Shown piece after piece: positions 14,492-47,091 of a DNA stretch of 64,000 bases. Both the position numbers and the translations under genes were made by a program. The stretch is from an uncultured virus (IMG/VR IMGVR_UViG_3300050821_004776) (Duplodnaviria > Heunggongvirae > Uroviricota > Caudoviricetes): IMG/VR virus record IMGVR_UViG_3300050821_004776. The stretch is one strand, 5' to 3'. Under the pieces are notes generated by a model. That model was not told where the DNA came from. It saw only the letters and a program-made list of their open reading frames with translations, and searched no databases. Numbering within the stretch: the first letter of the stretch is position 1; each line of letters opens with the position of its first letter.

Positions 14492-14555
14492 GACCTGTGC
14501 AACACGAGCCCTTCCGCGCGCATTCCCGCTGGGTGGCAGGGATTGCACTATTCAC

Positions 14556-14675
14556 TGGCGGGCAGCGCACGCTCGTCGTAAGCGGCTCAGGCTGGCCTAG
14601 AGGCCAGCACCGCAAACCCCGGCCACCAGCACAGATACTGTCGGGATGTGCGACCCGCTGGGTAGAATGTCCGTT
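14556..14675 (+). ncRNA. Putative natural single-guide RNA (tracr paralogue + repeat 3' end + guide)
   Basis: 14556-14619 matches the - strand of 32652-32589 at 56/64 nt (first 30 nt identical), then a hairpin, then GGATGTGCGAC (14644-14654), the last 11 nt of the CRISPR repeat. Confidence 0.8.
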
Positions 14676-29225: not shown

Positions 29226-30655
29226 TCACGCCGGCGGTCGCATGAGGCCGACGACGAGCTTGAGCGCCTGGTCTTCGGTAAATCCCGCTTGCATGTACGC
29301 CTTGAACATCTCGTGCGCGGAGATCGCGGCCTCCACTAGCTGGCTGAACGGCTCGGACTGATCGTCACCCATGATGAGCCCCCCGCTTCCCGGCCGCCAG
29401 CGCCTTCCAGTCCGCTCGCGGTGCCGGGCTGTCCGCCTCGTCGTGTGCCCGCGCGTAATCCGCGTCCCCGAGGTACCACAGGCGGCATCCGTGCCCGTCT
29501 TCGCGGAAGCGGATGCCCTCATGCGGCTCGAACGTGAATGACCAGCCCGTGCACTTCGGCGCGCCCTCGTAGTCGATGCGGTCGGCGTACTTGCGCATCA
29601 GGGCGGCGAGACGGCGCTTCACGGCTCCCGCTTGCGGATGATCACCCATGATGAGCCCCCCGCTTGCGGATGATCACGCCGGCCACGCCCAGGAGCCTCC
29701 GCAGCGCCTGCACGTCGGAGAGGGTAACGACATGGCCTACGGTCATGCCGCCCTCGTCCGGGTCCAGGTGCTGGCCGGCGAGGCACAGGAGGTGCAGGGC
29801 CGTATCGCTCATGACAAGCGTGACCGGGTGCAGCCCCTCGTCTTCCGGCGGCCCTGGCGGGGACTGTGAACTCACCTCACGTTCCCGCGCGAGCCACAGC
29901 CCGAGGATCTCCGTGACCTCTTCCGCGATCTTCCGGCCCTGCTCGATGATCTCCGTGTACTCACCCACGGCGCGCTCCTCCCTTGTTCTCGCGCAGCTCC
30001 CACGACGCCTTGACGGGCTTGAGCCAGCGCTGGTACGTCTCGGGGTCTTCCGCCGCCATGGTCTTGCTGTCCACGCGCCAGCCCCCCTTCAGCGTCATCG
30101 TATACGCCGGGTACCTGCCGTGAGGATCGGCCGTGATGTCGAAGGCGTCCGGGAGATCCGCCGGGTCCGGGAACACCGACAGCAGCCACGCCTTGATCGC
30201 GGCCTTCAGCTCCTCGTGCGCTTCCTTCGCCACGGACTCGGCGTCGTCCGCCTTCTTGTTCGATATCAGGAGCTGCTCCAGCTTGCCGCCGGACTCCGGC
30301 TCGATCTTGGCGCGCTTCCGGGCAGGCTGGGGGACCGGCGGTGCCGGCTGGGGAACTGGTTCGGTCACGGCAGCCTCTCTTCCTGGCTGATCATGCGCCA
30401 GGCACACAGCTTGCCGCGCATGCGGGTATCCGGCTGGGCCGGGACGATCTCCACGACGGTGTCCGGTGACAGCCCCGCCCGCGCGCACTCCCGCACGAAC
30501 CCGGCCAGCTCGCCCACGGTCGGCGTCATCTTCCACGTCAGGAACACCTCCGCCCGGACCTGCGACCACACCGTCTCATCGTCGTGGACGTCGAAGCGGT
30601 CGGGTATGTAGCCAGGATCGTCAGGCGGGGGCTCAGGGGTGTAACCGCAGTTCAC
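29226..30655 (-). other. Five small hypothetical genes (29226-29372, 29365-29649, 29642-29968, 29961-30368, 30365-30655)
   Basis: Overlapping ORFs; GTG at 30655 is preceded by AAGGAG. Confidence 0.6.
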
Positions 30656-30702
30656 AGGGGACTCCTTAGGTACGGGCCGGGGGATGTAGCCAGGATCGTC
30701 AG

Positions 30703-31095
30703 GTCGCACATCCTGTCTCTCACCACAGGCATTGTCACATCGTCAGCATGCTGTACCCCGGCGTCTTCTTGCTGTCGCACATCCTGTCTCTCACCACGGG
30801 CATTGTCACGCCCTTGAGACGCCGCAGCTCACGCAGTGCCTTGGCGTCGCACATCCTGTCTCTCACCACGGGCATTGTCACCATTGTCACGGCCGGACCG
30901 AGGCGCTCCGGGAAGCGTCGCACATCCTGTCTCTCACCACGGGCATTGTCACATGTACGCCGGGTTGCCGTTCGCCTGCTGGACCGCGTCGCACATCCTG
31001 TCTCTCACCACGGGCATTGTCACCTGAAAATCAGGTGGGGCGCATGCCGGGAACACACGGTCGCACATCCTGTCTCTCACCACGGGCATTGTCAC
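30703..31095 (-). CRISPR. CRISPR array: 6 x 36-bp repeats (- strand GTGACAATGCCCGTGGTGAGAGACAGGATGTGCGAC), 5 spacers of 35-36 bp
   Basis: Repeats start at 30703, 30774, 30846, 30917, 30988 and 31060; spacers 35/36/35/35/36 bp, all different; single variant repeat at 30703 is the trailer end. Confidence 0.98.
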
Positions 31096-31240
31096 GGCTC
31101 GCTTATTTTACCGGCCTTGGCCTGCGGATACGTCCCCGCTTGCGAGCGGCGGGGCGGCCCCAGGCTTCCGGGATCAGGTTATCCCCCCTCTTGTATTCGA
31201 GTTCTGGCTCCCTGCCTGCCTGCGAGCGCTTCCCGGAATT
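31096..31240 (-). promoter_or_regulatory. Probable CRISPR leader/promoter overlapping the nuclease 3' end
   Basis: TAAAAT at 31110-31105, 9 nt before the first repeat; CGCTCGCA occurs twice upstream. Confidence 0.55.
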
Positions 31241-32548
31241 CTGCTGGGCACGCCACCGCTCGCGGATGTTGACAGCGGCGTTGACGTCCGCGTCGGCCTC
31301 GTACCCGCAGCTCACGCACAGGAACCGCGTACTCGCCCGGTTAGCCCTCTCCGTGCAGCCGCAGGCGGGACAGCACTGGCTGGTGTAAGCGGGATTGACC
31401 TCCGGGGCGCTGCCGCCCTTCTGCGCGTACAGCACGGGAATCGCCCCGAGGTTAGCGGCCAGCAGTTCCCGGTTCAGCCCCTTTTTGGCCGCGACGTTCG
31501 TGCCGGGAACCTCTTCAGTGCCGGCGGCCGACCGTGTCATGGCGGGCAGCTTCAGGTCCTCGAAGACCACCGTCTCATAGGAGTCCGCCATCACCCGGGT
31601 GAGCTTGTGCAGGTGATCGCGCATGCGGTGCTCCGCCAGGGCGCGCAGTTCCCGCAGCTCGCCCAGGGTCCGGAGGTACCGCGTACCCGGGTGCCATTTC
31701 TTCCGGCATCCCGGGACCTGGCAGCGCTCCCGGTGCTCAGCCTCCGCTCGCCGCCGCTGACGGGCTAGCCGCTGCTCAAGAGCCGTGTACCTGGCGCGTT
31801 CAGCCTCGGTCAGGCCGGGGGTGATGGCGTAACGCCCGTCGCTGACGGCGACCTGCAAGTTCACGCCCCGGTCCGCGCCCGCTACCGTTCCGGGCAGGGC
31901 CGCCGGCCGCGCGTAAGCCTCAGTGCTGAGCGTGATCACGATCTCGAACTTGCCCTGGATGCCGCGCTTCACCCTGATGCTGGCGATATCAGCACCGGCA
32001 GGCAGCTCCCGGTGATACCGGATCTTCCATTCCCCGCCGAAGGCCCCGGGCAGCTTTACCCGGGCATGCAGCCCTGACACCGAGCGGATCGCGGGTACCG
32101 GCACGTTGGTACCGCCGGCTGTCATGAGAGAGCTGTCCGCGTAGCGTTTCCGGTACCTGACGCTCGCCTTCTCGCCTCGTGCCCGGCGTTCAGTCACCTT
32201 CTTGCGGGCCTGCCTCAGCTCATCGCCTATGGCCGCGCCCAGCGCTACCGAGTGCACGTCGCTCATGGGATACACGCCGTCGTCCCATCTGAAGGTGAGC
32301 TGCTCGCGGATGATCTTGCCCGTCCACGGGTCACTGTACACCGCCGGCTTCGCGGGCAGCATGCCCTTCCCGGCATGGCCTGCCCTGAGCGCGCTGTTCA
32401 CGTCCGCCAGGAACCGGACCTTGAAATTGTAGCCACGGTTGACTCCCGTGACCTGCTTGTCGTACGCGGCCTGCTGTGTCTTGCTGGGGTAAGCCGCGTA
32501 CTTGTATGCCCGGGACTCCCCGGTCTTAGGGCGCTTGCGTTTCGGCAT
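31103..32548 (-). CDS. tnpB: CRISPR-associated TnpB / miniature Cas12-like RuvC nuclease (481 aa)
   Basis: N-terminal AYKYAAYP; RuvC-I GADRG, RuvC-II VFEDL, Zn finger CPAC...CVSC, RuvC-III DADVNAAVNI; adjacent array and anti-repeat. Confidence 0.93.
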   Translation of the reverse strand: MPKRKRPKTGESRAYKYAAYPSKTQQAAYDKQVTGVNRGYNFKVRFLADVNSALRAGHAGKGMLPAKPAVYSDPWTGKIIREQLTFRWDDGVYPMSDVHSVALGAAIGDELRQARKKVTERRARGEKASVRYRKRYADSSLMTAGGTNVPVPAIRSVSGLHARVKLPGAFGGEWKIRYHRELPAGADIASIRVKRGIQGKFEIVITLSTEAYARPAALPGTVAGADRGVNLQVAVSDGRYAITPGLTEAERARYTALEQRLARQRRRAEAEHRERCQVPGCRKKWHPGTRYLRTLGELRELRALAEHRMRDHLHKLTRVMADSYETVVFEDLKLPAMTRSAAGTEEVPGTNVAAKKGLNRELLAANLGAIPVLYAQKGGSAPEVNPAYTSQCCPACGCTERANRASTRFLCVSCGYEADADVNAAVNIRERWRAQQNSGKRSQAGREPELEYKRGDNLIPEAWGRPAARKRGRIRRPRPVK

Positions 32549-32559
32549 CGCATCCCTTC

Positions 32560-32653
32560 ATTCCCGACAATGCCCATGGTGAGAGACAGGGTTCGCGGTG
32601 CAGGCCCGGAGGCCAGTCTTAACCGCTTACGACGAGCGTGCGCTGCCCGCCAT
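32560..32653 (-). ncRNA. tracrRNA-like RNA with 25-nt anti-repeat (32566-32590)
   Basis: CCTGTCTCTCACCATGGGCATTGTC is complementary to the crRNA repeat (24 Watson-Crick pairs + 1 G-U); extended -10 TGTTACAGT at 32667-32659. Confidence 0.88.
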
Positions 32654-32682
32654 CGGCTACTGTAACACGCTCTTCGCGGGAT

Positions 32683-34971
32683 CTATTCCGTCTCCCGCTC
32701 GCTCTCGTGCCGCAGGTCCCCGGGCCTGATCCGTGGCTGGTGAACTATCGTGCCCTCCAGGACGGGCGGTGCCATGGAGAGCTTGCGGTACGAGCCCTGC
32801 CCCGACGCCGTGAACGTGCCGTCGTCGGTCAGTTCCCGAATCCAGTTCTTGACCGTGCTCAGCTTCACGTCCCTGAACGGCCCGGAGGTATCCGCCATGG
32901 CAGCCTTGGCCAAGCTGTTCTGGCTGTAAAAGTTCACCGGCTCCTCGGACACCAGGCGCACGAGCCGCAGCTTCCCCTGGGCCTTGCCCGTGCTGGCGGC
33001 CACATCTTCCAGGGCATTGTCCGGCTCCGGTGCCCAGTTCCGGAACATCGGGGTCTTCGGGTACTTCGTGATACCCGCGTCCGCGCTGTTCCGGCCGTCG
33101 CCTGGCATCCAGAGAAAACCGGCCACCGTGTTCTGCCCGACGTTCCCCCACCGGTCCTTCGTCACGGTCAGCGTGGAGTACCCGGGGTCCGACTTGGTGA
33201 ACGGCTGGGCCTGCTCGACACGGATCACGTAATCGGCGGCGCTCTCCTTGCGCTCGGCCCCGAACGTGGTGGTGCCGCTCTTGGGGAGGTGGTCCAGGAC
33301 CACGGCGGTGCCGCCGGCCTTGGTGTACAGGTTGAGGAATTCCTGGAAGATGTACTGCTCGATCGCGTCCCCGTCGTTGGCCGAAGTGCCCGGTGCCAGC
33401 CTGGCCTGGAGTCCCCGGAACGCGTCGATCACCAGCAGGCACGGGCCAAGCTCGGCAAGGGCATCGGTCAGGTCGGTAAGCGCGGGCAGCTCGTCGGAAT
33501 AATGCAGGTGATAAGCGATGGCATGCGGCTGGAGGCCCATGTACTTCAGCTTGGCGTTAAGACCCCGGTCCTGCCGCTCGAAGTCAATCCATATGACGTG
33601 AGAACCTTCGAGGATCTGCTGTTCCGCCCATTTGGCGGCGGCCCATGTCTTTCCCGCTGACCGGTGGCCTGAGATGACGGTAATGCTCCCCGGCGCGATG
33701 ATCGGCTGCGGATTGGAGTCCCTGCCCACGATTGTCAGCATGGTAGGGGCGGGCGGTTCTTCAAGGCGGGAGATGTCCCTGAATCCGCTGAACTTCCGTG
33801 CCAGGACAAACGCTACGTCCCGGTCAGCCTGCAAGCGGGCTAGCCCTAGCTTGAACTGCCTGTCGTACTCCGGCGTGCCCCGGACAAGAGCGGCGAGGTA
33901 ATCAGCGGGGCTCTGCGACGACGGCTGGGGATTGTCCTGGGTGAGAGGCCGGACCTCGAATAGCGCCTGCTGCTGAACCGTTTCCAGGATTCTCTGCTCG
34001 CGCAGCGCCCGCAGTTTCCGCTCTGTCTCGAAAGCCTGGCTAGTGCGCTCGGCTATCTCATTCAGCTCGCCCTGGCTGGCGGGAAGATGCTCAACGGTCT
34101 TTTCCTGTGCCTGGACGAGAGCCGCCGCCTTCTGCTCGGTGTTGGCATCGACCAGGCCGGAGAGGTGGTGTTCTTCCCAGGGCTCGGCGGGATTGAGCGC
34201 CAGGGCCACGCGCTTGAGCTGTTCCATGGCCTGACCGGGGTTCAGGCGGGACGCCAGCAGGTAAAGGGCGAATTCCGCCAGCTCCGTACGGTGGCCGAGG
34301 GAATTGTCCGCCTGCGCCAGCCACCACTCAGGGCCGTCCGCTGGCCGGGTATAAGCGGTCGCGCTCTGCGGCACGGGAGGATTGGCGAGGTAATTGACCC
34401 AGCGCTCAGGCAGTTCAGGCAGCTCGTCCACGTTAGGGAGAAGGCACACCTCGCCGAGCGGGTCGAAACACTGGACGAGCTGGCCGTTCTTGTGATTGAC
34501 GTCGCCCGGAGCCCAGCTAAATCTGTGCGCTGTCCTTACTATCTCTATGTGCGTGCCGCCGTGCTCGTCCGCGAACTGGGCCAGCGCCGAGTCGGTGAAG
34601 TCGAGCCAGTCCGGCTTGCGGAACAGGTACCGGCCGCTGGGATTGCCGTAGCCCCGGCTCGTGACCCGGAACGTCGCGGGCAGGTCCCCCAGCCACGCCT
34701 CCGCCTTGTCCATCGTGTCCATGCCGCGCTTGTGGTCGTAGTGATCCACGTCGAAGGCGACCACGCCCGGCGGCGGCCGGAAGGCAAGGCGGTGCGCTCC
34801 GGCGGGCTGGGCCACGACAGTGGGGAAGGGAGACGATCCTCCGGTGGTGCCGGGAACGGGGGTGTACGCGCCGGACTGCCGCGCCAGGCACCAGACAGGC
34901 TGCCAGCCGTTCATGATCATGTTCTGCGCCAGTTGCAGCAGCAGCTCGGGCGGTGCCACGTTCGCAGGCAT
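32683..34971 (-). CDS. Bifunctional primase-polymerase / AAA helicase
   Basis: N-terminal prim-pol FDVD...GRYLF; C-terminal GHRSAGKT, WIDFE, LVIDA and VLDH motifs; TGGTACCGT 7 nt before ATG 34971 suggests a leaderless start. Confidence 0.88.
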   Translation of the reverse strand: MPANVAPPELLLQLAQNMIMNGWQPVWCLARQSGAYTPVPGTTGGSSPFPTVVAQPAGAHRLAFRPPPGVVAFDVDHYDHKRGMDTMDKAEAWLGDLPATFRVTSRGYGNPSGRYLFRKPDWLDFTDSALAQFADEHGGTHIEIVRTAHRFSWAPGDVNHKNGQLVQCFDPLGEVCLLPNVDELPELPERWVNYLANPPVPQSATAYTRPADGPEWWLAQADNSLGHRTELAEFALYLLASRLNPGQAMEQLKRVALALNPAEPWEEHHLSGLVDANTEQKAAALVQAQEKTVEHLPASQGELNEIAERTSQAFETERKLRALREQRILETVQQQALFEVRPLTQDNPQPSSQSPADYLAALVRGTPEYDRQFKLGLARLQADRDVAFVLARKFSGFRDISRLEEPPAPTMLTIVGRDSNPQPIIAPGSITVISGHRSAGKTWAAAKWAEQQILEGSHVIWIDFERQDRGLNAKLKYMGLQPHAIAYHLHYSDELPALTDLTDALAELGPCLLVIDAFRGLQARLAPGTSANDGDAIEQYIFQEFLNLYTKAGGTAVVLDHLPKSGTTTFGAERKESAADYVIRVEQAQPFTKSDPGYSTLTVTKDRWGNVGQNTVAGFLWMPGDGRNSADAGITKYPKTPMFRNWAPEPDNALEDVAASTGKAQGKLRLVRLVSEEPVNFYSQNSLAKAAMADTSGPFRDVKLSTVKNWIRELTDDGTFTASGQGSYRKLSMAPPVLEGTIVHQPRIRPGDLRHESERETE

Positions 34972-35007
34972 GAGACTGACGGTACCACGGGGATGGGATA
35001 CCAGCGA

Positions 35008-35175
35008 GAATAGGGGGGTCAAGGGGGGGTCAGAATAGGGGGGTCAAGGGGGGTCAAAGGGGGGTCAAACAGGAGCAGCGCCAACTGGGTCAAGGGGGGG
35101 TCAACACGGCACCCTTTTAAGGGGGCCGTGAACCCCCTGACCCTTGACCCCCCGCTGTTGACCTGACCCCCCCTG
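35008..35175. repeat. Candidate replication origin: iteron-like GGGTCA repeats converging on a palindrome
   Basis: Seven GGGTCA copies, then CACGGC-ACCCTTTTAAGGGG-GCCGTG (35105-35130), then four TGACC(C) copies; lies between divergent primase and polymerase genes. Confidence 0.7.
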
Positions 35176-35241
35176 GCTCTTCCGGGCTCTTCCGGCTCGA
35201 TGAGAAGGAGGGCTGGAAGCTGGCCGTGGTAGGCTCGCGCC

Positions 35242-37737
35242 GTGAGTGATGAGGACGAGCTGGCCCGGCAAGAGGCAATGAAATTCGCGGACAGGCACGT
35301 GCCCATGGCGCTGGAACACCCAGAGCCCGAATCCTCCCCCGGGGCTGAAAATCCCGGGCTGTCCCATGAGGACTGCGAGCTGGTGCCCGATCCTGTCATC
35401 AAGGGAAGCTGGTGGTGCCGGACGCACGGGGAGGGCAGGCTCATGCTCCTGGGCCACGAGCCCGCAGAGGCGGTCGCCCCCGTCGATGTCGCGGAGCTGC
35501 CGAGCGTCAGGATGCTGCTGGCCGCCGAGCCTGCCCTGGTGCACGAGGCCGCTCCCGCGCCCGTTCCCCAGCCTCCCGTGAAGAAGAAGCGGAGCGCGCG
35601 CATGACTCCTGAGGAGAAGGCGGCTAAGGCAGCGGAGCGCGCGGCCGAGCGCGAGAGGAAAAAGGCCGAGAGGGCGGCGGAGCGCCTGAAGGCGAAAAAC
35701 GCCGAGAAGGCGGAGAAGATCCGCGAGGCCGAAGGCGGCTGGACCGATCTTCCCGCCGTGGTCCTCCGTGACGGCACCGTCCGCCATGTCAGCGATAAGG
35801 ACGCGTGGGCTGTTATCGAGATGTACCTGGAGGATCTCTGCCTGGACTGCGAGACATCCGGCTATCCGCTCGGGCACCGGCTCTATGAACTGCGCACTGT
35901 CCAGGCTGGAGGCGAGAAGGCCGCTATCGTCTTTGACGCGAGTTCGCCGGGGCAGATGGAAATCGCCTCTCTCGCCCTCACGATGGCGGGGAAACTGCGT
36001 GCCCATTCCGCTACCGCCGATATCATCCCCTGCGTGGCGGCCGGCCTTATCGGCTGGGATCAGGCATGGGCCAAAACGCAGGATTCCGTCCTTAACGCGA
36101 AACTGAACGACCCGAAAATGAGCGGATCTGACGCTGACGCGCTGAAAGCGCTCGCGGCCGATCTTCTCCGGGAATACGCCGTTTCGCCAAAAGCCGAAGA
36201 AGACAAGAACGCGCTTTTCCGGGAAATGGGCTGCCTTGTCGATACGACGCTCACGACGCCTCCGGAGAAAAACGGCTGGTACCGCGTAAATCCCAATTCC
36301 GTCGTAATGACACGTTATGCCGGATCTGACGTTCTCGACCTGGCCGCCGTACTGCGCGTCCTGCCGCCCGTACCGGTCACGGAGGCGGTAATGGACCGCG
36401 AGCGCGAATTCCAGGCCGCGTGCGCTTCCGTCACCTGGACTGGATTCGCCCTGGATGCCGCGCATATCAAGGCTAAGATCGCCGGGGAGGAGGCGGCCCG
36501 CGAGGAGGCCGCGCATAACGTCCTGGTTCTCAGCGACGGGAAGATCACCAACCCGAAGTCGCCGGCTGTCATCAAGCTGCTGCCCGAGGTTATTCCCGGG
36601 ATCGAGCTGGGCGTCAACCGCAAGACAAAGCGGGTAAGCGCGGACAAGGGGTCGCTGGAAAAGGTCGCCCGTACCGATGACCCGCTCACTCATCACCTGG
36701 TAAAGCAGATTCTCGCCTACCGGCACCATGACACGACTCTCGGGCTGCTGCTGCGCCCGCTGGAGAATCTCTGCGACTACGGCGACGGGCGCATGCGGCC
36801 CACCGTGTACACGATCGAGGCGTCCACCGGGCGCACGAGCTGCCGCCGGCCTAACGGGCAGCAGTTCAGCCGGCAAGGCGGCGTGCGTGCCTGCGTGACC
36901 GCCGGGACCATGACCCTGGAACTCGTCGGCGGGCAGTGGGAGGTAGTTCCCGGGGCACAGGCTTGCGAGATGCGCGGTATCAGCGCCGACTTCGAGGGCT
37001 GCGAGATCCGCGTGGCGGCGGCGCTGAGCGGCGATGCGGGCCTGTACGAGGCCGAGGTGTCCACGTTCTGCTACTACTGCCGGGAGGACCCCTGCGGGTG
37101 CGGGAAACGGCACCTGGGGCTGCACTGGCGCACGGCGCACGGCGCGCACAAGCAGGACGCCACCAAGGAACACCGCTACATGGCCAAGCGCGGTACGTTC
37201 ACCCGCCTCTTCGGCGGCGGCCCCGAGACGGCGGCTGACCAGGTGGGCGCTGAGGTGAAGGACATGCAGGCGATCTTCGCGGCCTTCGATGAGAACGCGC
37301 CGGAGTTCACCGCCTGGGACAAGTGGATGCGCCAGTGCTACAAGGAGGGTTCCATGGTCTGGCGCGACTACGCCACCGGGACCAACTACAGCCAGCCCAT
37401 CGACGGCGTGAACCGGATGATCTACCAGACGTACTCAGGGCGGCCCGTCTACATCGCCAACGGGGCGCACGCGGCCGGGAACGGGGCTATCCAGGGCACC
37501 GCCCGGGAGCTGCTGGTGGACGGGACGCTGCGCTGGCGCAGGACGCGCTGGGGGCACCTGCCGCTGCTGCCCGTCCATGACCAGATCATCGCGTTCGTCC
37601 CCGGGCACGAGGCCCGCGAGGCGACCGCCGCCCTGGCCGGCGCGATGGAGACCACGGTCCTGTCCTCGCCCGGGTTCGAGATCCGCATCGGCGCGGACGT
37701 GGATGAGCCCTTCGTGAGCTGGCCGGATTCGAGCTGA
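35242..37737 (+). CDS. polA: Family A DNA polymerase with 3'-5' exonuclease domain
   Basis: DCETSG (ExoI), TGRTS, ADFEGCEIR (motif A), RYMAKRGTF (motif B), IQGTA and VHDQ (motif C). Confidence 0.93.
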   Translation: MSDEDELARQEAMKFADRHVPMALEHPEPESSPGAENPGLSHEDCELVPDPVIKGSWWCRTHGEGRLMLLGHEPAEAVAPVDVAELPSVRMLLAAEPALVHEAAPAPVPQPPVKKKRSARMTPEEKAAKAAERAAERERKKAERAAERLKAKNAEKAEKIREAEGGWTDLPAVVLRDGTVRHVSDKDAWAVIEMYLEDLCLDCETSGYPLGHRLYELRTVQAGGEKAAIVFDASSPGQMEIASLALTMAGKLRAHSATADIIPCVAAGLIGWDQAWAKTQDSVLNAKLNDPKMSGSDADALKALAADLLREYAVSPKAEEDKNALFREMGCLVDTTLTTPPEKNGWYRVNPNSVVMTRYAGSDVLDLAAVLRVLPPVPVTEAVMDREREFQAACASVTWTGFALDAAHIKAKIAGEEAAREEAAHNVLVLSDGKITNPKSPAVIKLLPEVIPGIELGVNRKTKRVSADKGSLEKVARTDDPLTHHLVKQILAYRHHDTTLGLLLRPLENLCDYGDGRMRPTVYTIEASTGRTSCRRPNGQQFSRQGGVRACVTAGTMTLELVGGQWEVVPGAQACEMRGISADFEGCEIRVAAALSGDAGLYEAEVSTFCYYCREDPCGCGKRHLGLHWRTAHGAHKQDATKEHRYMAKRGTFTRLFGGGPETAADQVGAEVKDMQAIFAAFDENAPEFTAWDKWMRQCYKEGSMVWRDYATGTNYSQPIDGVNRMIYQTYSGRPVYIANGAHAAGNGAIQGTARELLVDGTLRWRRTRWGHLPLLPVHDQIIAFVPGHEAREATAALAGAMETTVLSSPGFEIRIGADVDEPFVSWPDSS

Positions 37738-37867
37738 CATGGCGAAGGCCCCCCTGCGCGGTGCGCGGGAGGGCCTCCGGCGGCGGGCTACAGGATGCCC
37801 AGGAGCAGCAGGATGATGAGGATGGCGATGATTACCAGGAGGACGTACAGCAGGTCCGTGCGCACGG

Positions 37868-38038
37868 TCAGGCACCCCCGTGATGCCCCGTGCCCCACCA
37901 GCCCCAGATGAAGTGAGCCGCCAGGAGGGCCAGGCCGATGAAGGCGCAGGTCATCAGGTGCTCCAGGGAGACGGTCTTGTCTACCCAGGACAGGATGGCC
38001 CCGATCAGGAAGACGACGAAGGCGAAGATTGCGAACAT
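37868..38038 (-). CDS. Small two-TM membrane protein, holin candidate
   Basis: 56 aa (MFAIFAFVVFLIG...), two hydrophobic helices, near the endolysin; a second very hydrophobic peptide ORF follows (about 37788-37871). Confidence 0.5.
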   Translation of the reverse strand: MFAIFAFVVFLIGAILSWVDKTVSLEHLMTCAFIGLALLAAHFIWGWWGTGHHGGA

Positions 38039-38085
38039 TTGGAGTTCCTTCCCTGCGGGCCGGGTGCAGACAGGCGGCCCAGTCT

Positions 38086-38590
38086 CATGATAGACCCCCG
38101 GGACTTGCCGGGCCAGGAATAACCGGGAGCGTGCCGGCGCTGTAGTGATCATGACACCTGATGTAGACTCGCGCCCATGAGCATGAGCACTGAGGACGTC
38201 TGCGGCGCGCTGACCGTGGCAGGTGCCGACGAGGACCTGGTGGGCCGGATCTTCGCCGCGCGCCTGGAGCCCGAGCACCTGGATGACCCGATGCGGAAGT
38301 TCGCCATCGGGGTTCCCCTCGGGGAAGAGCGGGCTATGCTGGTCGTGTACCGCTTCGGGAAGCCGCCCTCGGAAACCGACGACGAGTACTTCCACTGGAT
38401 TCCGCAGTGGCTCGAAGTCGCCGGGCCGTTCCCGCTCGCGGACGCCGAGGCCAAGGCGAAGGAGCTGACCAGTGCCTGAGGACAAGAAAATCCCGCTGCT
38501 GCGCGCCGACGCCACCGACGATGACCTCCAGGATGAGCCGGAGGCGCAGGACGAGCCTGAGGGCCAGGCCGCCCCCGGGGGTCTATCATG
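38086..38590. promoter_or_regulatory. 17-bp perfect inverted repeat pair, putative divergent promoters
   Basis: CATGATAGACCCCCGGG (38086-38102) and CCCGGGGGTCTATCATG (38574-38590). Confidence 0.6.
38177..38479 (+). CDS. Hypothetical protein
   Basis: 100-aa acidic ORF. Confidence 0.55.
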   Translation: MSMSTEDVCGALTVAGADEDLVGRIFAARLEPEHLDDPMRKFAIGVPLGEERAMLVVYRFGKPPSETDDEYFHWIPQWLEVAGPFPLADAEAKAKELTSA

Positions 38591-38653
38591 CCCGGTCTGC
38601 GGGCTGCGGCTCTGCGGGCACAACCTCCCCTATGCGTGAACTGAGGTAACACC

Positions 38654-39826
38654 ATGAGTGACGGCATGACGCCTTCCAGCCCCCCGCAGCCGGTGCATTC
38701 GGCGGCGGAGTACACGGGCAAGCCGTTCGGCCGCCCCGGCACGGTGCTGTTCACGAAGGCGTGGCGGATCAAGCACAACGTCTTCGGGGCGAGTGCCCGT
38801 GCCACGGGTTCCGGCGCGACCCTGCTGGGCGAGGACTCGATCTACGTCAGCCTCCTGCTGGGCGGCCTGCCCGTGTACGCCGGCTACAACTACGGCACGT
38901 TCAGTAACTGGACTGCCCTGAGCGCCCGGTTCGGCGCTGTCGCGAAGCTCGTGTCGATCACGCCCGTCGTGCAGGGCACCGCCGCGTCCATGTGCCTGGA
39001 CATCGAGCCCGGCAACGCCTCGCCCGCCCAGGCTCCCGAGTTCCAGCGGCAGGGCAATCACGCCGGCGCGCTCAAGCCCTGGTACTACTGCTCAGCCGGG
39101 GACGCCCAGGCGGTCATCAGCGCCCTGGCAGGGGCCGGCTTCGCCCGGGACACGTACTTCCTGTGGACCGCGCACTGGATCGGCAGGCACATCTGCGCTC
39201 CCGCCGTCTGCGGTTACCCCGCCGCCGACGCCACCCAGTACCAGGACAACGGGAATTTTGACTCCGATATCTTCTCCGTGGCGATGTTCACTGTCGATCA
39301 GTTCCCGGTGCTGTCGCTGACCGTGCCGCCCATGACCGATCCCATCGGGGGCGTGGACGCCGTGCACACCGCGCAGGCGCGGCTCAATGTGTGGGCGGCC
39401 TCCCCGCTGCACACCAACGCCACGGTCACCGTGGACGGCTCGTTCGGGCCGCTCACCCAGGCGGCGGTCAAGTCCTTCCAGGCCGCGAAGAAGATCACCA
39501 CGGACGGCACGGTCGGTCCGGTCACCTGGGGCGACCTTAACGCCACGCCGCCCGTCACCCCGCCGCCGCCCCCGCCGCCCCCGCTCCCGTTCGCGCCGCT
39601 GTCCTGCACGCCGGGCATCCAGCGCTATATCGACGTCGGCCGTGGCATCGCCGGCTATAAGGGCACCTACACCACGGTTATCAGCGACCGCACGGGCAAG
39701 ACGGTCTTCAGCAGCAAGGGCTCGATCGCCTCGTTCCGCGCTTCCGTTCCGGCCGCCGGCCCTTACCTCGTCCGCTCCGAGGCCGAGGGGTACGGCACCT
39801 CAGTGAAGACCGTAGACGTCAAGTGA
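38654..39826 (+). CDS. Endolysin (GH25/DUF1906-like catalytic domain + peptidoglycan-binding domain)
   Basis: LDIEPG, WTAHW and ATQY motifs; [17 protein letters not shown]...[11 protein letters not shown]-binding motif. Confidence 0.85.
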
Positions 39827-40515
39827 CCTATGCCAACGGCCCGGTGCCGGACAGCGCCACGCAGGCGGCGGTGCCGGCTGTGACTGTACGGCCAGTTCAC
39901 TGGTACCACATCTGGGCCGGGGATGACCATCACGGATCGCTGTGGCGGGAAGCCGCCGAAGAGCATTTCGCTGCCCTGGAAGCCGCCGAGTTCGGCGGGG
40001 ACGTGCACGTCGGCATCACCGGCGGTCATGAGCAGGCCGCGCGGGCATGGGACTGGGCGGAGAAGCGCTGGCCTGCGGTAGCGAACATCATGGCGTTCGG
40101 GGAGGGCTTCGAGATGCCCACCATTGACGCCCTGTGGAAGGACTCCGGCAACCGGGTGGCGGATACGCCCGTGCTCTACGCCCACGCCAAGGGCGCGTTC
40201 AACCACGACCCGGGCAACATCCGCTACCGCAGGGCCATGACCGCGCACCTGGTGTCAGGCTGGCGCGACCGCGTGGAAGAGCTTCGTGACTACGACGTGC
40301 TCGGGCTGCACTGGCTGACGCATGATGAGTTCCCGGACCGGATCAGCAAGGGCAGGCCGATGCCCGGCGGCAACTTCTGGTGGGCGAGAGCCGGCTACCT
40401 GTGCACGCTCCTGCCCGTGGAGTGGTACAGCCGCTACTGCGCCGAGGGCTGGGTCGGGCGCGGCGACCCGAAGGCGAAGGGCCTCCTGCCGGGCTGGCCG
40501 GACTACTGGTGGTAG
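39823..40515 (+). CDS. Hypothetical protein, possibly glycosyltransferase-related
   Basis: VLYAHAKG and GGNFWWAR motifs; function uncertain. Confidence 0.45.
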
Positions 40516-40549
40516 CCTGAAGGCGCGCGAAGTATCCCCCTAGCTAGGA

Positions 40550-40783
40550 GTGCACGTGGGAATTGTCCAGACCGTCGAGACTGACATCGAGAACGTTATC
40601 CACCACGCCAGGGTCGCCGTCGAGCGGGCTACCGCCACGGTCGCCGCTGACGTGCGTTCCGCCGTGCAGTCCGCCGAGGCGGCCATCACGGCTGACGAGC
40701 CGGCGGTCCTCGCCGCGCTCCAGTCCGGGGCCAAGGCTGTCGAGCAGGCCATCGAGGCCGCGCTTGCCGCGCATGGGCTCTAG
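40550..40783 (+). CDS. Ala-rich helical hypothetical protein
   Basis: AGGAG RBS; amphipathic sequence. Confidence 0.55.
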   Translation: MHVGIVQTVETDIENVIHHARVAVERATATVAADVRSAVQSAEAAITADEPAVLAALQSGAKAVEQAIEAALAAHGL

Positions 40784-41217
40784 CAGTCCCGCAGCCGGCC
40801 CGGAGGACGCTGAAGCGTCTCCCGGGCCTTCTGCGCCCCCGGCAGGAAGTCCCCCGTTCGATTTCGGGGACGGCCCGGGGTACAGCCGCTGGCGCATCGA
40901 AGAGTTCGAGCGGCGTTACTTCGATTCACTCATCTTTCCCGCAGGGCCGCTCTGCATCGTCACGGGCTGCTGAGGATCAGTTCACGTCCGCCATCTGTGA
41001 ATAGATTTCACAGTAAGGTCCCGGGCCGTCTGCGCACGCGAATGCCTGGGCCATGCTCCCGCTGGCCGTCGTCATCCGGCTGAGCATCAGGTCGTAGTGC
41101 CGGCGGCAGGCGAACGCCGCGTGCTTCCCGTCCTGCGTCAGCAGGATCAGGCCGGCGCTCTCCCCGCAGGTGCTGTCTGGCATGCTGTCTCCTTCGGTGT
41201 ATGTGTAGTGTGTAAGC

Positions 41218-41649
41218 ATGACGCCGAGGCCCAAGCGGAACGCGCAAGGCGCTCGCTGGCGACGGCTCGTCGCGTTCGTCGTTAACCGTGATTTCGGCCG
41301 CTGCTGGATCTGCGGGCACTGGGCTGCGCATTCAGCGGACCACCTTATCCCCGTGACGGAAGACCCGTCGCTGGAATGGGACGTGAAGAACCTCAAGGCC
41401 GCGCACGGCTACCCGAAGGGCTGCCCGGACTGCACGATCGCGGCGGTGAAGCGCGGCGGCAAGCCGGTCTACTGCAATGAGATTCGCCAGTACGGGTCCG
41501 TCGAGCGCGCCCGGCGCAAGATCGAGGAGCGCACGGGCCTGCGGCTGCCCATCGGCGATACCGCGACCGTGCCCGAGGGCCGTGATTGCTGGTTACTCAC
41601 GGGTATTGCTCCTGACGGCTACGTCATGTTAATGTTTCCTGGTCGTTAA
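41218..41649 (+). CDS. HNH endonuclease-like protein
   Basis: CWICGH...ADHLIP...NLKAAH...CN motifs. Confidence 0.75.
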   Translation: MTPRPKRNAQGARWRRLVAFVVNRDFGRCWICGHWAAHSADHLIPVTEDPSLEWDVKNLKAAHGYPKGCPDCTIAAVKRGGKPVYCNEIRQYGSVERARRKIEERTGLRLPIGDTATVPEGRDCWLLTGIAPDGYVMLMFPGR

Positions 41650-41694
41650 TTCTCAACAAGGAAGGAGTGCTGTCGTGGCCTCAGGAGCCTGCAC

Positions 41695-42354
41695 GTGATC
41701 GGGGCGGCGCTACTCGCCGCTATCACCGTCACCTCGGGTGATACGCTCTCCGGCCTTGCCGCTTCGCACGGCGTCCCGCTGGCTGCCGTGGAGCGGCTCA
41801 ACCCGGGCATCACGGACCCGGACCTTATTTTCCCCGGTGAGAAGATCCAGCTCGCCGACGACGTGCTCGTAGAGCCGGGGAATACCCTGTCGGGAATCGC
41901 CGCCGCGCACGGTTTCGCGCTCGCCGCGATCGAGTCCGCCAACCCGGCCATCACCAACCCGAACTACATCTACCCGGGCGAGCGCGTCAGCCTGCCTGCG
42001 GGAGCCGCCGCTCCGTCCGTTGCCGACACCCGAACGGGTACCGGGCAGGGCACGGCTCCCTCTGAGGTCACGACCGCCGCCGCTCCGCTGCACGACACGG
42101 CTGACGTGTCCACGGCCGGCGACGGCGCGTTCCAGGCATGCGTGATCAGCCGCGAGTCCGGCGGCAATCCCCAGGTGATGAATTCCACCGGGCACTACGG
42201 GCTTTACCAGTTCAGCGCCTCCACCTGGGCCGCCTACGGCGGTAACCCGGCGGACTTCGGCAACGCCACCGTGGCGCAGCAGAATGCGGTCTTCGATGCT
42301 GCCATGGCAGCGGGCGGCCAGTTCAACTGGAGTCCCTACGATGGATGTTTATAG
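41695..42354 (+). CDS. 2x LysM + Rpf/SceD-like transglycosylase
   Basis: Two GxTLSGxA LysM repeats; RESGGN, GLYQF and STW...YGG motifs. Confidence 0.88.
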   Translation: MIGAALLAAITVTSGDTLSGLAASHGVPLAAVERLNPGITDPDLIFPGEKIQLADDVLVEPGNTLSGIAAAHGFALAAIESANPAITNPNYIYPGERVSLPAGAAAPSVADTRTGTGQGTAPSEVTTAAAPLHDTADVSTAGDGAFQACVISRESGGNPQVMNSTGHYGLYQFSASTWAAYGGNPADFGNATVAQQNAVFDAAMAAGGQFNWSPYDGCL

Positions 42355-42386
42355 TAATCACGCGATTACGTAGGGTGTATAAAACC

Positions 42387-42422
42387 GGGCAGGGCCTCGC
42401 CAAGGTGAGGCCCTGCCCTTTT
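42387..42422 (+). terminator. Intrinsic terminator-like hairpin
   Basis: GGGCAGGGCCTC...GAGGCCCTGCCC (12-bp stem) followed by TTTT. Confidence 0.7.
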
Positions 42423-42459
42423 CCCGCAGGCCACGGTCTTGCCGGCTCCTGCGGGAGTT

Positions 42460-42486
42460 CCTGTGGTGAGAGACAGGATGTGTGAC
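42460..42486 (+). CRISPR. Orphan partial CRISPR repeat
   Basis: CCTGTGGTGAGAGACAGGATGTGTGAC matches the 3' 27 nt of the trailer repeat at 26/27. Confidence 0.85.
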
Positions 42487-43329
42487 CTAAGACCCGTATT
42501 CCTCCTGGGCACGGGCGTTCTGCACGCCGTTCAGCAGGTAGGAGGTCACGGCCAGGCCGCCGCCCCCGCTGTTGATCTCGAAGCCGTAGTCCAGGCCCGT
42601 CAGCCACCAGGCGTGCGCCAGCGCGTGGAAGTGCATCGCCTGGCCGAAGAACGGGTTGAGGCTGCCGTGGAAATCTGCCATCGGCCGCTGGGCGGCGAAG
42701 TAGATCCGGTGCCAGCAGTCGCCGTGCTGGCAGACGTAGCCGCCGTTGACGTTCCACCAGATGCCGTCCTCGTACACGACACCGTAGGAGGTTCCCGGCC
42801 CCCTGCTGGCCCACCGGCCGTTGCGCATCGCTGCGGTCCAGACCATGACTTCGGTCCCGCCCTGGCCCTGGTGCGTGCCGGCCGCGTCGTAGCCCGGCTC
42901 GAACCACACGTCGAAGCCCGCGTTCCAGCTCCCGCCGCGCGTGAGCGCTGTCCGCAGGTTCACGACGGGATTGCCGTCATGGGCTGCGGGCACGGGATAC
43001 CAGGTCTTCCGGCCGCCCTCGTACGGCACCATGCCGTGCTCGGCTCCCTGCCCGATGTTGGGGTAGACCCAGCCCCCCTGCGACGCCTGGACCACCTGGA
43101 ACGCCGGCAGGTAGACGTTACCGCTCTCCGTCAGCCTCAGGGTGCTCCAGATGTTCCCGGACGTCTCGGTGTAGATGCCGAAGTACTCGTGCTCGCCGTT
43201 ATGGGAGTACGTGGACCGCGCCGCTGTCACGGGATGGGTTACAGCAGCCTGCGCGAAGCTCATCCCGGTCAGCAGTACGGCCAGGGTGGTGACCGCGCCG
43301 GTGATAGCGGCGCTCAGTGTCCTGATCAT
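42487..43329 (-). CDS. Secreted glycoside hydrolase family 12 (endoglucanase-like)
   Basis: Signal peptide; YPNI, NAGFDVWF, TEVMVW and GFEI motifs, with both catalytic Glu present. Confidence 0.82.
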   Translation of the reverse strand: MIRTLSAAITGAVTTLAVLLTGMSFAQAAVTHPVTAARSTYSHNGEHEYFGIYTETSGNIWSTLRLTESGNVYLPAFQVVQASQGGWVYPNIGQGAEHGMVPYEGGRKTWYPVPAAHDGNPVVNLRTALTRGGSWNAGFDVWFEPGYDAAGTHQGQGGTEVMVWTAAMRNGRWASRGPGTSYGVVYEDGIWWNVNGGYVCQHGDCWHRIYFAAQRPMADFHGSLNPFFGQAMHFHALAHAWWLTGLDYGFEINSGGGGLAVTSYLLNGVQNARAQEEYGS

Positions 43330-43565
43330 GCAAATCTCCTTTCAGTGGTCTTCGGGCGTGATGGGCTTGCAGTGCTCGCTGAAGAAGACCGCGTGCACGT
43401 CCGCGAAGGTGGCGACGATCTGTGTCGCCCCGCCCGGCCCTATGCGCACGATGTCCGCCCCGCCGCTTTCCTGGAGGTAATGCCACCGGATGCCGCTCAC
43501 CTCGAACGCGAGAAGCGAGCCGGTCACCACGGTGATGTCCCTGTTGCCGTCGCTGGTCATGCCGG

Positions 43566-43853
43566 TCATGCTGCTGCCTTCTGCCGCTTGCGGAGCTTGG
43601 CCGGGATGTGCAGGCTGGCTTCAGCCAGGTGGGCGTTATGCCACTTCACCCAGGTAGCGAGCTGAGCGCGCCGCCAGCACTTCAGCGGGGTCTTGCCCGG
43701 CCTGTACTGGATCAGCGTGGGGACCGGCATCCCCCAGGATTCCCCGGACGTGGCTTCCCGCTTGTACCAGTTCGAGATGGCCTGTGACGTGACCCCCAGT
43801 TCCAGGGCCACTACTTCCTGGCCGACTAGATCGACCTTGTGGACGTTCGGCAT
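43566..43853 (-). CDS. HTH/excisionase-like DNA-binding protein
   Basis: VALELGVTSQAISNW HTH followed by MPVP...W. Confidence 0.6.
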   Translation of the reverse strand: MPNVHKVDLVGQEVVALELGVTSQAISNWYKREATSGESWGMPVPTLIQYRPGKTPLKCWRRAQLATWVKWHNAHLAEASLHIPAKLRKRQKAAA

Positions 43854-44162
43854 GTGTTACCTCCTATCACAGTGTGATGCCATGGCGAGGTCATGGTGAT
43901 GTTACCTTATTTCACAGTCGCGGGTTGACGCCGAGGACAAGCTCCCACAGGACGTTGAGGGCTTCTCGCTGTTCGTCCGCGTCTCCCGTGCGCTTGCCGG
44001 GGTCCAGTTCGCGCTCAACGACGCGGATAGCCGCGTGCGGAGTCATCCGTTACCAGCCTGTCAGCCAGTGCCCGAGGTGGTACAGGGCGTCGATCGTGAT
44101 GGCGGCCAGCAGGACGGCGGCGGCGAGAACGTACAGGAGCCCCAGGACGCTGAGGCAGCCGG

Positions 44163-46267
44163 TCAGGGTGCGCATGTGCCGCGCTTGACCAGCGGGCGTT
44201 CCGGCCGTCCGTGCGCGTATGCCATCGCGCTCCCGAAACCGGTCCAGGGCAGGTCCGTGCGGCCAGTCCGCTCCCAGAAATGACCATCGGCGTCTTCCAC
44301 GACGTCCCCTTCGGCCCACTCAGGCTCGCGGTGCGCGACCGCGTCCTCGTAGATCTCCTGGGCGTTCAGGACCCGGTAGCCCTTGCGGATCAGTGCTGCC
44401 CTCAGCTCGTCCAGGGTGATCGCCGCCGGGTGATCAGGGGCAGGGGCGGTCTGCTGATAGGTGAAGTGCTCCGGCTCGCGTCCGGCGTTCCGCAGCGCGG
44501 CTACCCAGCTTCCTTCTCTCAGGGTCCGGGTGTGCGCCGCGCTGCGGGTGCCGTCCGTGCGCTCCACGGTGACGCGGAAAAGGCCGGTCCCCGCTTCGGC
44601 GTTGCCGGCGTCCATGGCGCGGCTCGTTGCGAGCTGCGCGGCGGTGCGGCGGAAGAGGGCCTCCGTCAGGGTGGTGCAGTCATGGAAAGCGAACGTAAGC
44701 TGGCTCTGCCCTGACGCGAGGCCGCCTGTCCGGAGCGCGTGGTGCCGGAGGGCGTTCCGCAGGTCGTGCTTGGTGATGGTGTCGTTGTCGTCAGTGAAGA
44801 AGTGCATCAGGATTTGCCTCCTAGGGCGTTGCTGAGAGCGGTGAAATCGGAGAGGGTGCTCTGGAGTCCGGCCACCGCGACCTGGTAGTTCCCCGCCGTG
44901 AATTCCAGGGCGGAGGTGCTCAGGTCTGTCATCGCCGACCGGTACAGCGCGCCGTCCACCGGGGGAGGGTAGGCGGAGGCTGTCGCGGCGTCGGTACTGA
45001 CCTGAGTCGCCTGGGCGTCGCACTGGGTGTAGGCGACCGCTGTTTTCAGGCAGTCATCCCATGCTCCCAGGGCCGTGACCGTGGCGCTGTAGTCCGCGCC
45101 GGCGTTGCCCGCCAGCCAGGAGTTCAGCGTTACGGTCACGGGCTGTTGCGCGGGGGCGGGCCGGAACACGACCTGGGTCAGTACCAGGGTGATGCCGAAG
45201 CCGAGGATGGCCAGGGCGATGAGGAGCGCCAGGGCGCGGTGACTGAGCTTCATGGGTTAAACGCTAGCCGACCGCGATGGTGACTGTCAGGGCGGTGGGG
45301 TTGCCGAGCGCCGCGTACGCGGCCTTCTTCACGTATAGCGCGCCGACCGCGACGTCCTGATCCGGAGGGGTGTCCTCGTTGAAGCGGACGGTGTTCTTGG
45401 TGGCGCGCTCCTTGGTGAACTTGACAACGAGTTCTCTGGTTTCCTTCTTGACAGCCATCAGGTTGCCTCCTTTTTGATGTTGGTGCGCGATGCGCGGGTG
45501 AAAACGGGTGATACACGGACGCCGATCCGCCAGTGAAACAGCAGCTCGGCGTTGAGGACTCGCTCCATCTTGCGAGCGACGGCTTCCGGGTCCATTCCCT
45601 CGGGAATGCGCTCGGGGTGATCCGTGATAGCGATCACGAACTTGTTTTCCACGACGTTGGTCCGGGGCTTCACCGGCCGGCCGCCCATTTGTAGAGCGCG
45701 TACAGGGCATGCCCGGTGACGGCCCCGCCGTAAGTCTCGGCGAATGTCAGCCAGAAATCCGCTGCCCCGTGCTCGTGGCTTGCGGCGTACAGGATGCAGG
45801 CCATGACCAGCGCAAGGAGGATGGTGGCGGGTTGCAGCGCCAGGGTCAGGAAGCGCTTGAAGGCTTTCACGGTCCCACCCCCCACTTCGGGGAGGCGGCG
45901 AGCACGATCAGCTCAGGAGCCTTGAAACAGTACTCCTGGGTCAGGAGCTTGCGCACCTTGCTGATCGCACGGGGTGCCGTGGTGGCGCTGACGGTTTCCA
46001 GGTGGTTGTAGTCCTCGTGTGCCCAGCGCCACACGACTTCGTACTCGACGGCTTTCACGCGTTCTCCCTGAAGTACTGGACGGTGATGCGGAAGGTACCC
46101 ACGCCGGGCATGACTACCTGGAAGTCCGACGTCGGCGGTGTATCGCTGAGGGCGGTCATCGACCATTCCTGGCTGGCCGGCCCGAGCTGCACGCGGCCGG
46201 TAAAGATCGCGCTGCGGAGCCTGCGGGCGAAGTCCCCCGCGTCCACCGTGGGGTACGGCGGCATCAC
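44163..46267 (-). other. Run of small hypothetical genes (including 44807-45253, 45264-45458, 46055-46267)
   Basis: Contiguous - strand ORFs. Confidence 0.55.
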
Positions 46268-47091
46268 GCGGTTTCCTTAGCGGCAGCACGGCGGCGGGGA
46301 GCGCGGGCCTTCGGCTTCTCTTCCGGCCTGGTGGCCTTCAGCGACGCCTGGATCGCGTCCATCATGTTCACGATCGCCGCGCCGCCCGGTTCGGCGGGCT
46401 TGGGGGCCGCGATGACGTGGCCCTTCTCGATCTTCGCCTGGATCACGGCGGCGACCGCCTCAGTCGAGACATCCTTCTGGGCGGCGTAGTCAAAGTCGCC
46501 GGTCATCTGCTCGATGAGCCTGGCAGCCAGTGCCTGCTCGTCCTCGCTCGCCGTCATCGGCGGGGCCGCGAAGTCGGGCGTGAGCACGTCGGCATGCCAT
46601 TCGAGCGACTCCAGGATCAGGTAGCCGTCCTGCGGGGCAAGCACGGCCAGGGCTACCCGCTGCCGCATGGCGAAGGTCAGGATCGCGACCTTGCCCGACG
46701 CCTGGAGCGCGCCCGCCAGCAGGGCGTAGGTCTTCTCGCCCCCCTTGTCGGGCTGCACGTGGTAGGACGTCTTGATCGCCGTCCGGGGCACGCTCGCCGC
46801 GTTCGTGAACATGAGGATCGACGCCACGCGGTTCTTCGGGCCGTAGGCTGCCTTGAAGTCCTCGTCGTCCAGGATGACCAGGGAGCCGTCCGGGGCGTCG
46901 TAGCCTTTGGCGATGTCATTCCACTGGACTTCCTGCCCGTCCGCCTCAGCCACCCGCGTGAAGCGGATGCGCGAGCCGTCGCTCTTGCGGACCATGTGCA
47001 GTCCGAGCTGGTTGTCCTTGGTGGAACTGCCGAGCTTGACCGGCATGTTCAGGAGCGAGAGCGTGATGGCTCCCGTCCAGATCGATCGCAT
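46264..47091 (-). CDS. ku: Ku (NHEJ end-binding) homologue
   Basis: MRSIWTGAI...PVKL...GSRIRF...IAKGY typical of prokaryotic Ku. Confidence 0.93.
   Translation of the reverse strand: MRSIWTGAITLSLLNMPVKLGSSTKDNQLGLHMVRKSDGSRIRFTRVAEADGQEVQWNDIAKGYDAPDGSLVILDDEDFKAAYGPKNRVASILMFTNAASVPRTAIKTSYHVQPDKGGEKTYALLAGALQASGKVAILTFAMRQRVALAVLAPQDGYLILESLEWHADVLTPDFAAPPMTASEDEQALAARLIEQMTGDFDYAAQKDVSTEAVAAVIQAKIEKGHVIAAPKPAEPGGAAIVNMMDAIQASLKATRPEEKPKARAPRRRAAAKETA

Follow-up and report, generated by a model that had tools for sequence, protein, structure and literature searches.

The nuclease locus and its guide RNAs

The window, a stretch of 64,000 nucleotides, is part of the GC-rich, actinophage-like genome of a soil phage that carries tape measure, helicase, primase, endolysin and Ku genes. 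It encodes a compact TnpB/Cas12n-like nuclease with a CRISPR array and a tracr-like RNA, a fused single-guide copy at a distance and a solitary repeat between a LysM-transglycosylase gene and a GH12-like gene (Table 1).

Table 1. Features of the window that bear on the solitary repeat
Feature	Position	Strand	Remarks
TTC plus 9-nt duplication	14523..14534	+	copies the sequence 3' of the omega-like cassette; strongest bracket
Omega-like single-guide copy	14535..14654	+	scaffold fused to the last 11 nt of the repeat; promoter-like 5' part
19-nt exact copy of post-terminal-repeat sequence	30606..30624	-	5' flank CGC, no TTC
CRISPR array	30703..31095	-	6 repeats of 36 nt, 5 spacers of 35-36 nt
Conserved DNA block	31096..31230	-	overlaps nuclease C-terminal tail; kept in four clade phages
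TnpB/Cas12n-like nuclease P0001, 481 aa	31103..32548	-	RuvC D/E/D motifs, zinc finger
Proposed 8-nt target	32522..32529	-	nuclease codons 7-9; flank GCC; judged to be chance
Tracr-like RNA	32563..32652	-	scaffold and anti-repeat (32566-32597), directly upstream of nuclease gene
LysM-transglycosylase (Rpf-like) gene	41695..42354	+	upstream of orphan
Candidate promoter	42348..42376	+	TTTATA, 17 nt, TAGGGT; putative start near 42384
Hairpin 1	42387..42418		12-bp arms at 42387 and 42407; terminator-like on minus strand (GH12-like gene)
Hairpin 2	42422..42456		arms at 42422 and 42448-42456
Left-junction bracket	42458..42462	+	TTC (42458-42460) plus CT, the first 2 nt of the guide; p 0.009-0.026
Orphan repeat	42460..42486	+	last 27 nt of array repeat, crRNA sense, 3' end intact
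Would-be guide	42487..42506	+	antisense of last codons and stop of GH12-like gene; native sequence
GH12-like gene P0002	42487..43329	-	conserved C-terminal EEYG[SA]-stop

The only NCBIfam cut-off that P0001 passed was that for guided TnpB. Its best solved relative was RdCas12n (PDB 9J09; PMC12216341), with E values of 3e-20 for the single protein and 7e-37 for a profile, and the kinship of P0001 with Cas12n rests on these best matches; LaTranC was a distant match only (E 9e-13). P0001 falls, by alignment, into a small phage clade of array-bearing TnpB/Cas12n-like effectors. The array begins 7 nt past the nuclease stop, and the tracr-like RNA contains an anti-repeat of 25-32 nt that gives the window's best duplex with the repeat. 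In RNA libraries of two studies, contig ends fall at 32642 and 32643, some 10 nt within the putative tracr start, which is only a weak hint in favor of that start. The conserved block over the nuclease tail may be a leader or an embedded scaffold. This single genome thus combines array, split tracr, fused single guide and solitary repeat, and it can serve as a natural model for the transition from TnpB to Cas12.

Several smaller features were seen in and around these guide loci. Spacer 3 ends (30882-30890) with a copy of the repeat's first 9 nt. The 19 nt after the terminal repeat (30684-30702) recur 78 nt downstream, apparently in the 5' part of the next gene (frame judged by eye). The guide of the omega-like cassette (14523-14674) covers the -10 of a downstream PLD-like gene, and a residual 9-nt, TTC-flanked site just before the promoter-like region of the cassette is a possible self-repression site. 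A recurring 10-mer near this cassette was not enriched.

The orphan repeat and its surroundings

The coordinates of the hairpins, the orphan repeat, TGTATAAA and CTAAGACC in the original prediction were all confirmed by re-check. The orphan matched the last 27 nt of the consensus repeat at 25 of 27 positions, with two mismatches, and differed from the terminal repeat R6 by a single mismatch. The repeat core gave 8 matches at three or fewer mismatches, compared with 0.58 expected, and 8 was reached in 0 of 100 shuffles. The orphan is a genuine copy of the phage's own array repeat, far above chance. It is also still able to pair with the tracr, as had been claimed: the orphan-tracr duplex was calculated at -38.5 kcal/mol, compared with -43.3 kcal/mol for the corresponding 27 nt of the consensus, and both substitutions give G-U pairs with the tracr in the crRNA sense.

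The region around the orphan (42354-42510) folds with a z-score of -5.1. The promoter candidate was based on TAGRRT as the -10 consensus. TAGGGT at 42371 was a better -10 candidate than TGTATAAA at 42376, and the candidate promoter is one of two sites of the TTTATA-17-TAGGGT type in the 64 kb. Two other TAGRRT sites in the window lie 7 nt before an ATG, which suggests the start position in Table 1; a sigma-70 scan called no promoter. Hairpin 1, described originally as a terminator, was indeed predicted to be one, although on the minus strand only, where it would serve the GH12-like gene; the plus strand has only four U. Hairpin 1 may also stop a plus-strand transcript before the repeat. In a repeat-free allele, hairpin 2 would directly adjoin the GH12-like stop.

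P0002 itself had no Pfam match, and the GH12 label rests on PF01670 in three of its eight homologs. The sequence 3' of the orphan is the antisense of AQEEYGS-stop, the C-terminus of P0002. As originally described, CTAAGACC (42487) begins at the GH12-like stop: read in reverse complement, it is the stop region of the minus-strand open reading frame 42487-43329. In the two closest P0002 homologs the stop lies at the same position, after EYGA, so the would-be guide is native coding DNA and not an acquired spacer.

The RNA-library contigs listed for positions 31100-46000 (4 of 10 runs) extend over the LysM gene as far as 42345 and, from 43229, over the 5' part of the GH12-like gene. The orphan is in none of these listed contigs; small RNAs are poorly captured in such libraries, so its absence says nothing for or against transcription. 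The orphan was present in just one other record, G001 (L003), which agrees with the window at 6020 of 6020 bases and does not count as independent; its 10.4 kb past the window end contained no further copy of the repeat or scaffold. An Rfam search of the window gave no family match.

Orphan repeats in related phages

The clade was defined by a search of the full library and alignment of the nuclease, and genomic context was analyzed for G004, G005, G006 and G007. G005 and G007 are complete and G004 is 75% complete; G002 and G003 are subsets of G004 and were counted once with it. Repeats or repeat tails ending in GCGAC directly follow the nuclease gene in all four phages, and a conserved block over the tail of the nuclease gene is common to the window and G004-G006. 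The repeats themselves differ widely among clade phages. A scaffold profile search detected no homolog in G004-G006. Cas1, Cas4 and Y1 transposase were detected in none of the five records searched (G001 and G004-G007), and the absence of Cas1 and Cas4 from all five means that spacer acquisition would need the host.

Orphan repeats were present in two of the five clade phages examined, the window phage and G005. G005 has four (O1-O4), located 17-115 kb from its array in record coordinates. All four end at the repeat's last base, as does the 27-nt window orphan, and are 18, 36, 36 and 35 nt long; each orphan carries variants seen in leader-distal array repeats. G004 and G006 had no orphans above control, and none were found in G007, where only a 10-nt tail was searchable. 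In G007 (L382 11310-11700) the array has decayed to hairpins plus the shared 10-nt tail, with irregular spacing. Five matches of the G005 repeat tail outside G005 look like chance, and among 80 of 120 genome matches from leader-motif scans there were only known clade members and chance matches.

The orphans occupy gene junctions: O1 is flanked by a promoter-like site and a gene, O2 is at a gene start and O3 is in frame in the 5' end of a gene that we take to be PTH2-like. A 41-nt stretch identical to a site 10 kb away in the same genome precedes O3, and the two together read as a displaced spacer-plus-repeat unit. O4 and the window orphan both abut the stop codon of an opposite-strand open reading frame; removal of O4 in silico restored a stop with a purine-rich ribosome-binding site and an ATG directly after it. 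Relative to the neighboring genes, two G005 orphans are in the crRNA sense and two are anti-repeats, as expected for undirected insertion. The orphan guides had no match with three or fewer mismatches in 20 nt elsewhere in their own genomes.

A conserved RNA-like element was seen in G005 (L229 18410-18534), G006 (81497) and G004 (4239) and was not found in the window. It matches positions 1177-1238 of a large-subunit rRNA model at E 2.5e-4, below the gathering score and with a large insertion, and resembles the L11-binding domain.

Junction structure and candidate PAM

In four of the six dispersed elements, TTC at the left junction is followed by a duplicate of the bases with which the downstream sequence begins. 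The duplication is 9 nt long in the omega-like cassette, 7 nt in O4, 4 nt in O1 and 2 nt in the window orphan. O2 shows a duplication of 4 nt preceded by AGC, and no duplication was seen in O3, so both are without the TTC bracket. Per-site null probabilities were 0.015 for a duplication of 2 nt, 0.001 for 4 nt and 3e-5 for 7 nt. When the best of 64 trinucleotides was allowed, 8 of 20,000 null sets reached four of six elements and none of 19,999 six-element null sets reached the summed score, the null being random positions, TTC being perhaps commoner in intergenic DNA, and the junction window and parameters having been chosen after the data were viewed. With the omega-like cassette left out, 22 of 23,999 five-element null sets reached the summed score. 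The window bracket is the weakest case: it overlaps the first 3 nt of the repeat match and is lost if the junction is barred from that match. The adjacency of orphans to stop codons would follow from the same motif, as TTC on one strand is GAA, often found after a stop, on the other. Searches with P0002 and its alignment for an empty allele found only this phage in viral contigs, and the LysM homolog in G007 has other neighbors.

TTC is a PAM of type I-C and I-G systems. Taken together, the junctions predict TTC as the PAM of this compact phage nuclease clade. The PAM reported for Cas12n is AAN (PMC12216341). Protospacers provided little further information on this point. No convincing protospacer was found in 2.27 Mb of DNA and none for the window array in INPHARED, and three other clade arrays had only weak protospacer matches. 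Spacers compared with 401 genomes gave a best match of 29/35, and six of the 40 matching loci examined reached 75%. The only candidate protospacer was a full-length 29/36 match of spacer 4 of G004 (L087 11601-11636) to terminase genes of the Streptomyces phages Asis, Geonosis and phiSAJS1, with AAC or AGA as flanks. It is a weak hint that clade arrays may target other actinophages. The CGC flank of the 19-nt self match downstream of the array is compatible with safety under either TTC or AAN.

Origin and possible function of the orphan repeat

From the structure of these junctions, we lean towards the view that the orphan is an ectopic, 5'-truncated copy of the array repeat that was inserted between TTC and native DNA with a short duplication. 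The insertion would probably be a by-product of the machinery that feeds the array (spacer acquisition) or of break repair. In the spacer-side step of adaptation by Cas4-Cas1-Cas2, a PAM-selected DNA end is joined to the repeat. By a first route, a PAM-selected end of phage DNA would be joined one-sidedly to the 3' end of the repeat by host Cas1-Cas2(-Cas4), and the left side would then be resolved through microhomology. By a second route, a PAM-anchored break would be repaired with the array as template. The presence of promoter-like DNA in the omega-like cassette at 14.5 kb favors a DNA route. The window's Ku gene (46264-47091) also is present in G004 and is absent from G005-G007, so Ku is not required for orphans to arise.

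Several observations count against insertion at TTC: two of the six elements (O2 and O3) lack the bracket, the duplication in the window is only 2 nt, no empty allele was found, and G004, G006 and G007 are without orphans. In addition, the closest solved relative uses AAN and the flanks of the candidate protospacer are AAC or AGA.

Once in place, the orphan could be transcribed from the upstream candidate promoter or by read-through, and its RNA could pair with the tracr and load the phage nuclease. In this respect the description of the orphan as a third guide source is plausible, given its intact 3' end, its pairing with the tracr and the upstream promoter candidate; in Cas12r, a phage TnpB-like system, one repeat end of 26 nt is enough to make a guide (10.64898/2026.04.20.719267). 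The guide of the orphan would match only its own locus, where the repeat end stands in place of the PAM, and the repeat-free allele of relatives, where TTC is intact. As the repeat end replaces the PAM, the orphan would pose no danger to its carrier and might act as a weapon against relatives. This functional half of the reading requires a TTC-like PAM for the effector, and many orphan copies are probably neutral scars.

An extension of this reading, which we regard as doubtful, is that the repeat by itself is a homing element: repeats at TTC/protospacer junctions would turn flanking native DNA into guides for the phage's nuclease, and the empty allele of a co-infecting relative would be cut and could be converted. 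If so, arrays would seed distributed, allele-specific drives throughout the genome with no coding sequence and no transposase, and orphans that guide against empty alleles would be the smallest RNA-guided homing elements known to us. For the insertion itself, the junction signature (repeat 3' end joined to protospacer base 1, PAM left behind and a short duplication) bears in a concrete and testable way on the origin of solitary phage CRISPR repeats.

Alternative explanations

The orphan could instead be the functionless remnant of a larger mobile cassette, similar to the right end of an IS200/IS605 element, after an internal deletion. A precise junction between right end and flank together with a left motif is the anatomy of TnpB elements, and both are seen here; the omega-like cassette at 14.5 kb shows that longer units have moved. 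We consider this origin unlikely, as Y1 transposase (PF01797) was detected in none of the five records and the elements have duplications of 2-9 nt, whereas IS200/IS605 insertion makes none. The orphans also carry variants specific to their arrays, and one carries a spacer-like piece.

A function on the opposite strand seems rather improbable. The 3' UTR of the GH12-like mRNA would carry a 27-nt anti-repeat and titrate the pre-crRNA as an antisense sponge. The orphan does lie between the GH12-like stop and its predicted terminator, on the strand most surely transcribed, and the duplex with the repeat was calculated at -46.8 kcal/mol. G004, G005 and G006 are without a dedicated long anti-repeat, and the best pairing sites in G005 are its orphans. 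However, both substitutions give A-C mismatches in this orientation, compared with G-U pairs in the crRNA sense, two of the four G005 orphans have the opposite orientation and the TTC bracket is left unexplained.

The original prediction proposed an autoregulatory crRNA. Such a guide, of the CreR, scaRNA or tracr-L type, would direct the nuclease to codons 7-9 of its own gene and damp its transcription; we judge this very unlikely. The match to these codons (32529-32522) is there, as stated; it comprises the 8 nt at the 5' end of the guide and lies 20 nt into the nuclease gene. The last residue of P0002 is Ser, compared with Ala in its two closest homologs, and the Ser codon supplies part of the match and so lengthens it; the promoter candidate upstream also would suit such a role. 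Yet CTAAGACC has three sites in the window besides 42487, one in the nuclease gene and two equal ones at 23066-23073 and 12847(-), the last of which had been overlooked. The earlier caution that 8 nt is within chance was upheld: matches in the nuclease locus were obtained for 15% of random 8-mers and 7% of composition-matched 8-mers. The GCC at the 5' flank of the target fits neither TTC nor the AAN of Cas12n, and the guide is constrained coding sequence. Orphans of G005 occur at unrelated sites, and the longest matches of their guides to the G005 nuclease locus were only 5, 6, 5 and 8 nt; G004, G006 and G007 have no orphans. Known cases are reported to lie in or beside the cas locus and to target promoters (10.1101/2023.03.03.530964).

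Least probable is the other original proposal, a Racr-like decoy for a host CRISPR system whose repeat is similar: the orphan is a solitary repeat downstream of a promoter candidate, as reported for Racrs (PMC10651486), but its repeat is that of the phage itself and is tied to the phage's own nuclease, repeats differ widely within the clade, a sample of 401 genomes from a single actinobacterial order contained neither a host array with the repeat nor any other copy of it, and published solitary units are described as 'not associated with cas genes' (PMC10651486). The orphan has neither the target of an autoregulatory guide nor, in the genomes sampled, the likeness to a host repeat of a Racr.

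Comparison with known systems

Cas12n proteins range from 400 to 700 aa, and P0001, a TnpB-like RuvC nuclease of 481 aa with intact D/E/D and an array, falls within this description. The window shares with Cas12n (V-N/V-U4) a GC-rich, actinophage-like setting and conserved tail DNA after the last RuvC Asp, and adaptation genes are likewise absent from the five records searched here, as reported for Cas12n (PMC12216341). It differs from Cas12n in that P0001 is phage-borne, the long anti-repeat is upstream of the gene and not in its tail, and there is an extra, fused single-guide copy. The DNA of the nuclease tail is conserved and gave only patchy duplexes; the long anti-repeat upstream of the gene in the window is absent in G004 and G006.

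The orphan resembles solitary repeat units (PMC11656645), and the phage repeats of Racr units are likewise single, intergenic and downstream of a promoter candidate (PMC10651486). In contrast to Racr units, the orphan copies the repeat of an array on the same phage genome, which also encodes the matching effector and tracr, and comes with a TTC-anchored duplication; several copies can occur per genome, as in G005. Standalone repeats and mini-arrays such as CreR, scaRNA and Cracr have been described (10.1101/2023.03.03.530964; 10.1101/2024.10.29.618823), and the orphan resembles the standalone repeats among them. The orphans differ in being 11-115 kb from the locus and in having no second repeat, no PAM-flanked promoter target and flanking coding DNA as guide. 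Nor is the window orphan a viral mini-array, in which two repeats enclose an acquired spacer directed at a related virus, as it has a single repeat followed by native coding DNA.

In IS200/IS605 TnpB homing, the guide derives from the right-end flank and the target is the empty allele. The logic proposed for the orphan is the same as that described for these elements, with DNA at the right end as guide and the empty allele recognized by its motif (10.64898/2026.03.27.714800). The differences are that the orphan element is at most one repeat long and noncoding, the tracr and nuclease would have to act in trans, the duplication is variable and no transposase is present. TranC and Cas12r, TnpB-derived effectors of phages or bacteria, also combine a TnpB-sized nuclease with an array that lacks cas1 and cas2, and have a split tracr/crRNA beside a fused form, as is encoded in the window (10.64898/2026.03.27.714800; 10.64898/2026.04.20.719267); dispersed orphan repeats were not found in the passages of these two reports that were searched. 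Fusion of a half-repeat to the tracr has been described for inactivated Cas12f (PMC10691335). No title or abstract searched, in a set that leaves out most subscription journals, described a phage whose own repeats had been dispersed in a PAM-anchored manner.

Other features of the window and library

Two 45-nt direct repeats flank a 34-nt segment that is identical to part of the primase-helicase gene (20962-21141, 33128-33161). The exonuclease-like gene at 27254-29173 has an internal LAGLIDADG domain, which may be part of an intein. Intergenic blocks are repeated among small minus-strand genes, one of 84 nt in two copies and one of 71 nt in three copies (54318-54643, 61998-63563). In L002 (1-5900), from an unrelated large phage, a long run of small ORF-like units is formed from a 12-nt repeat.
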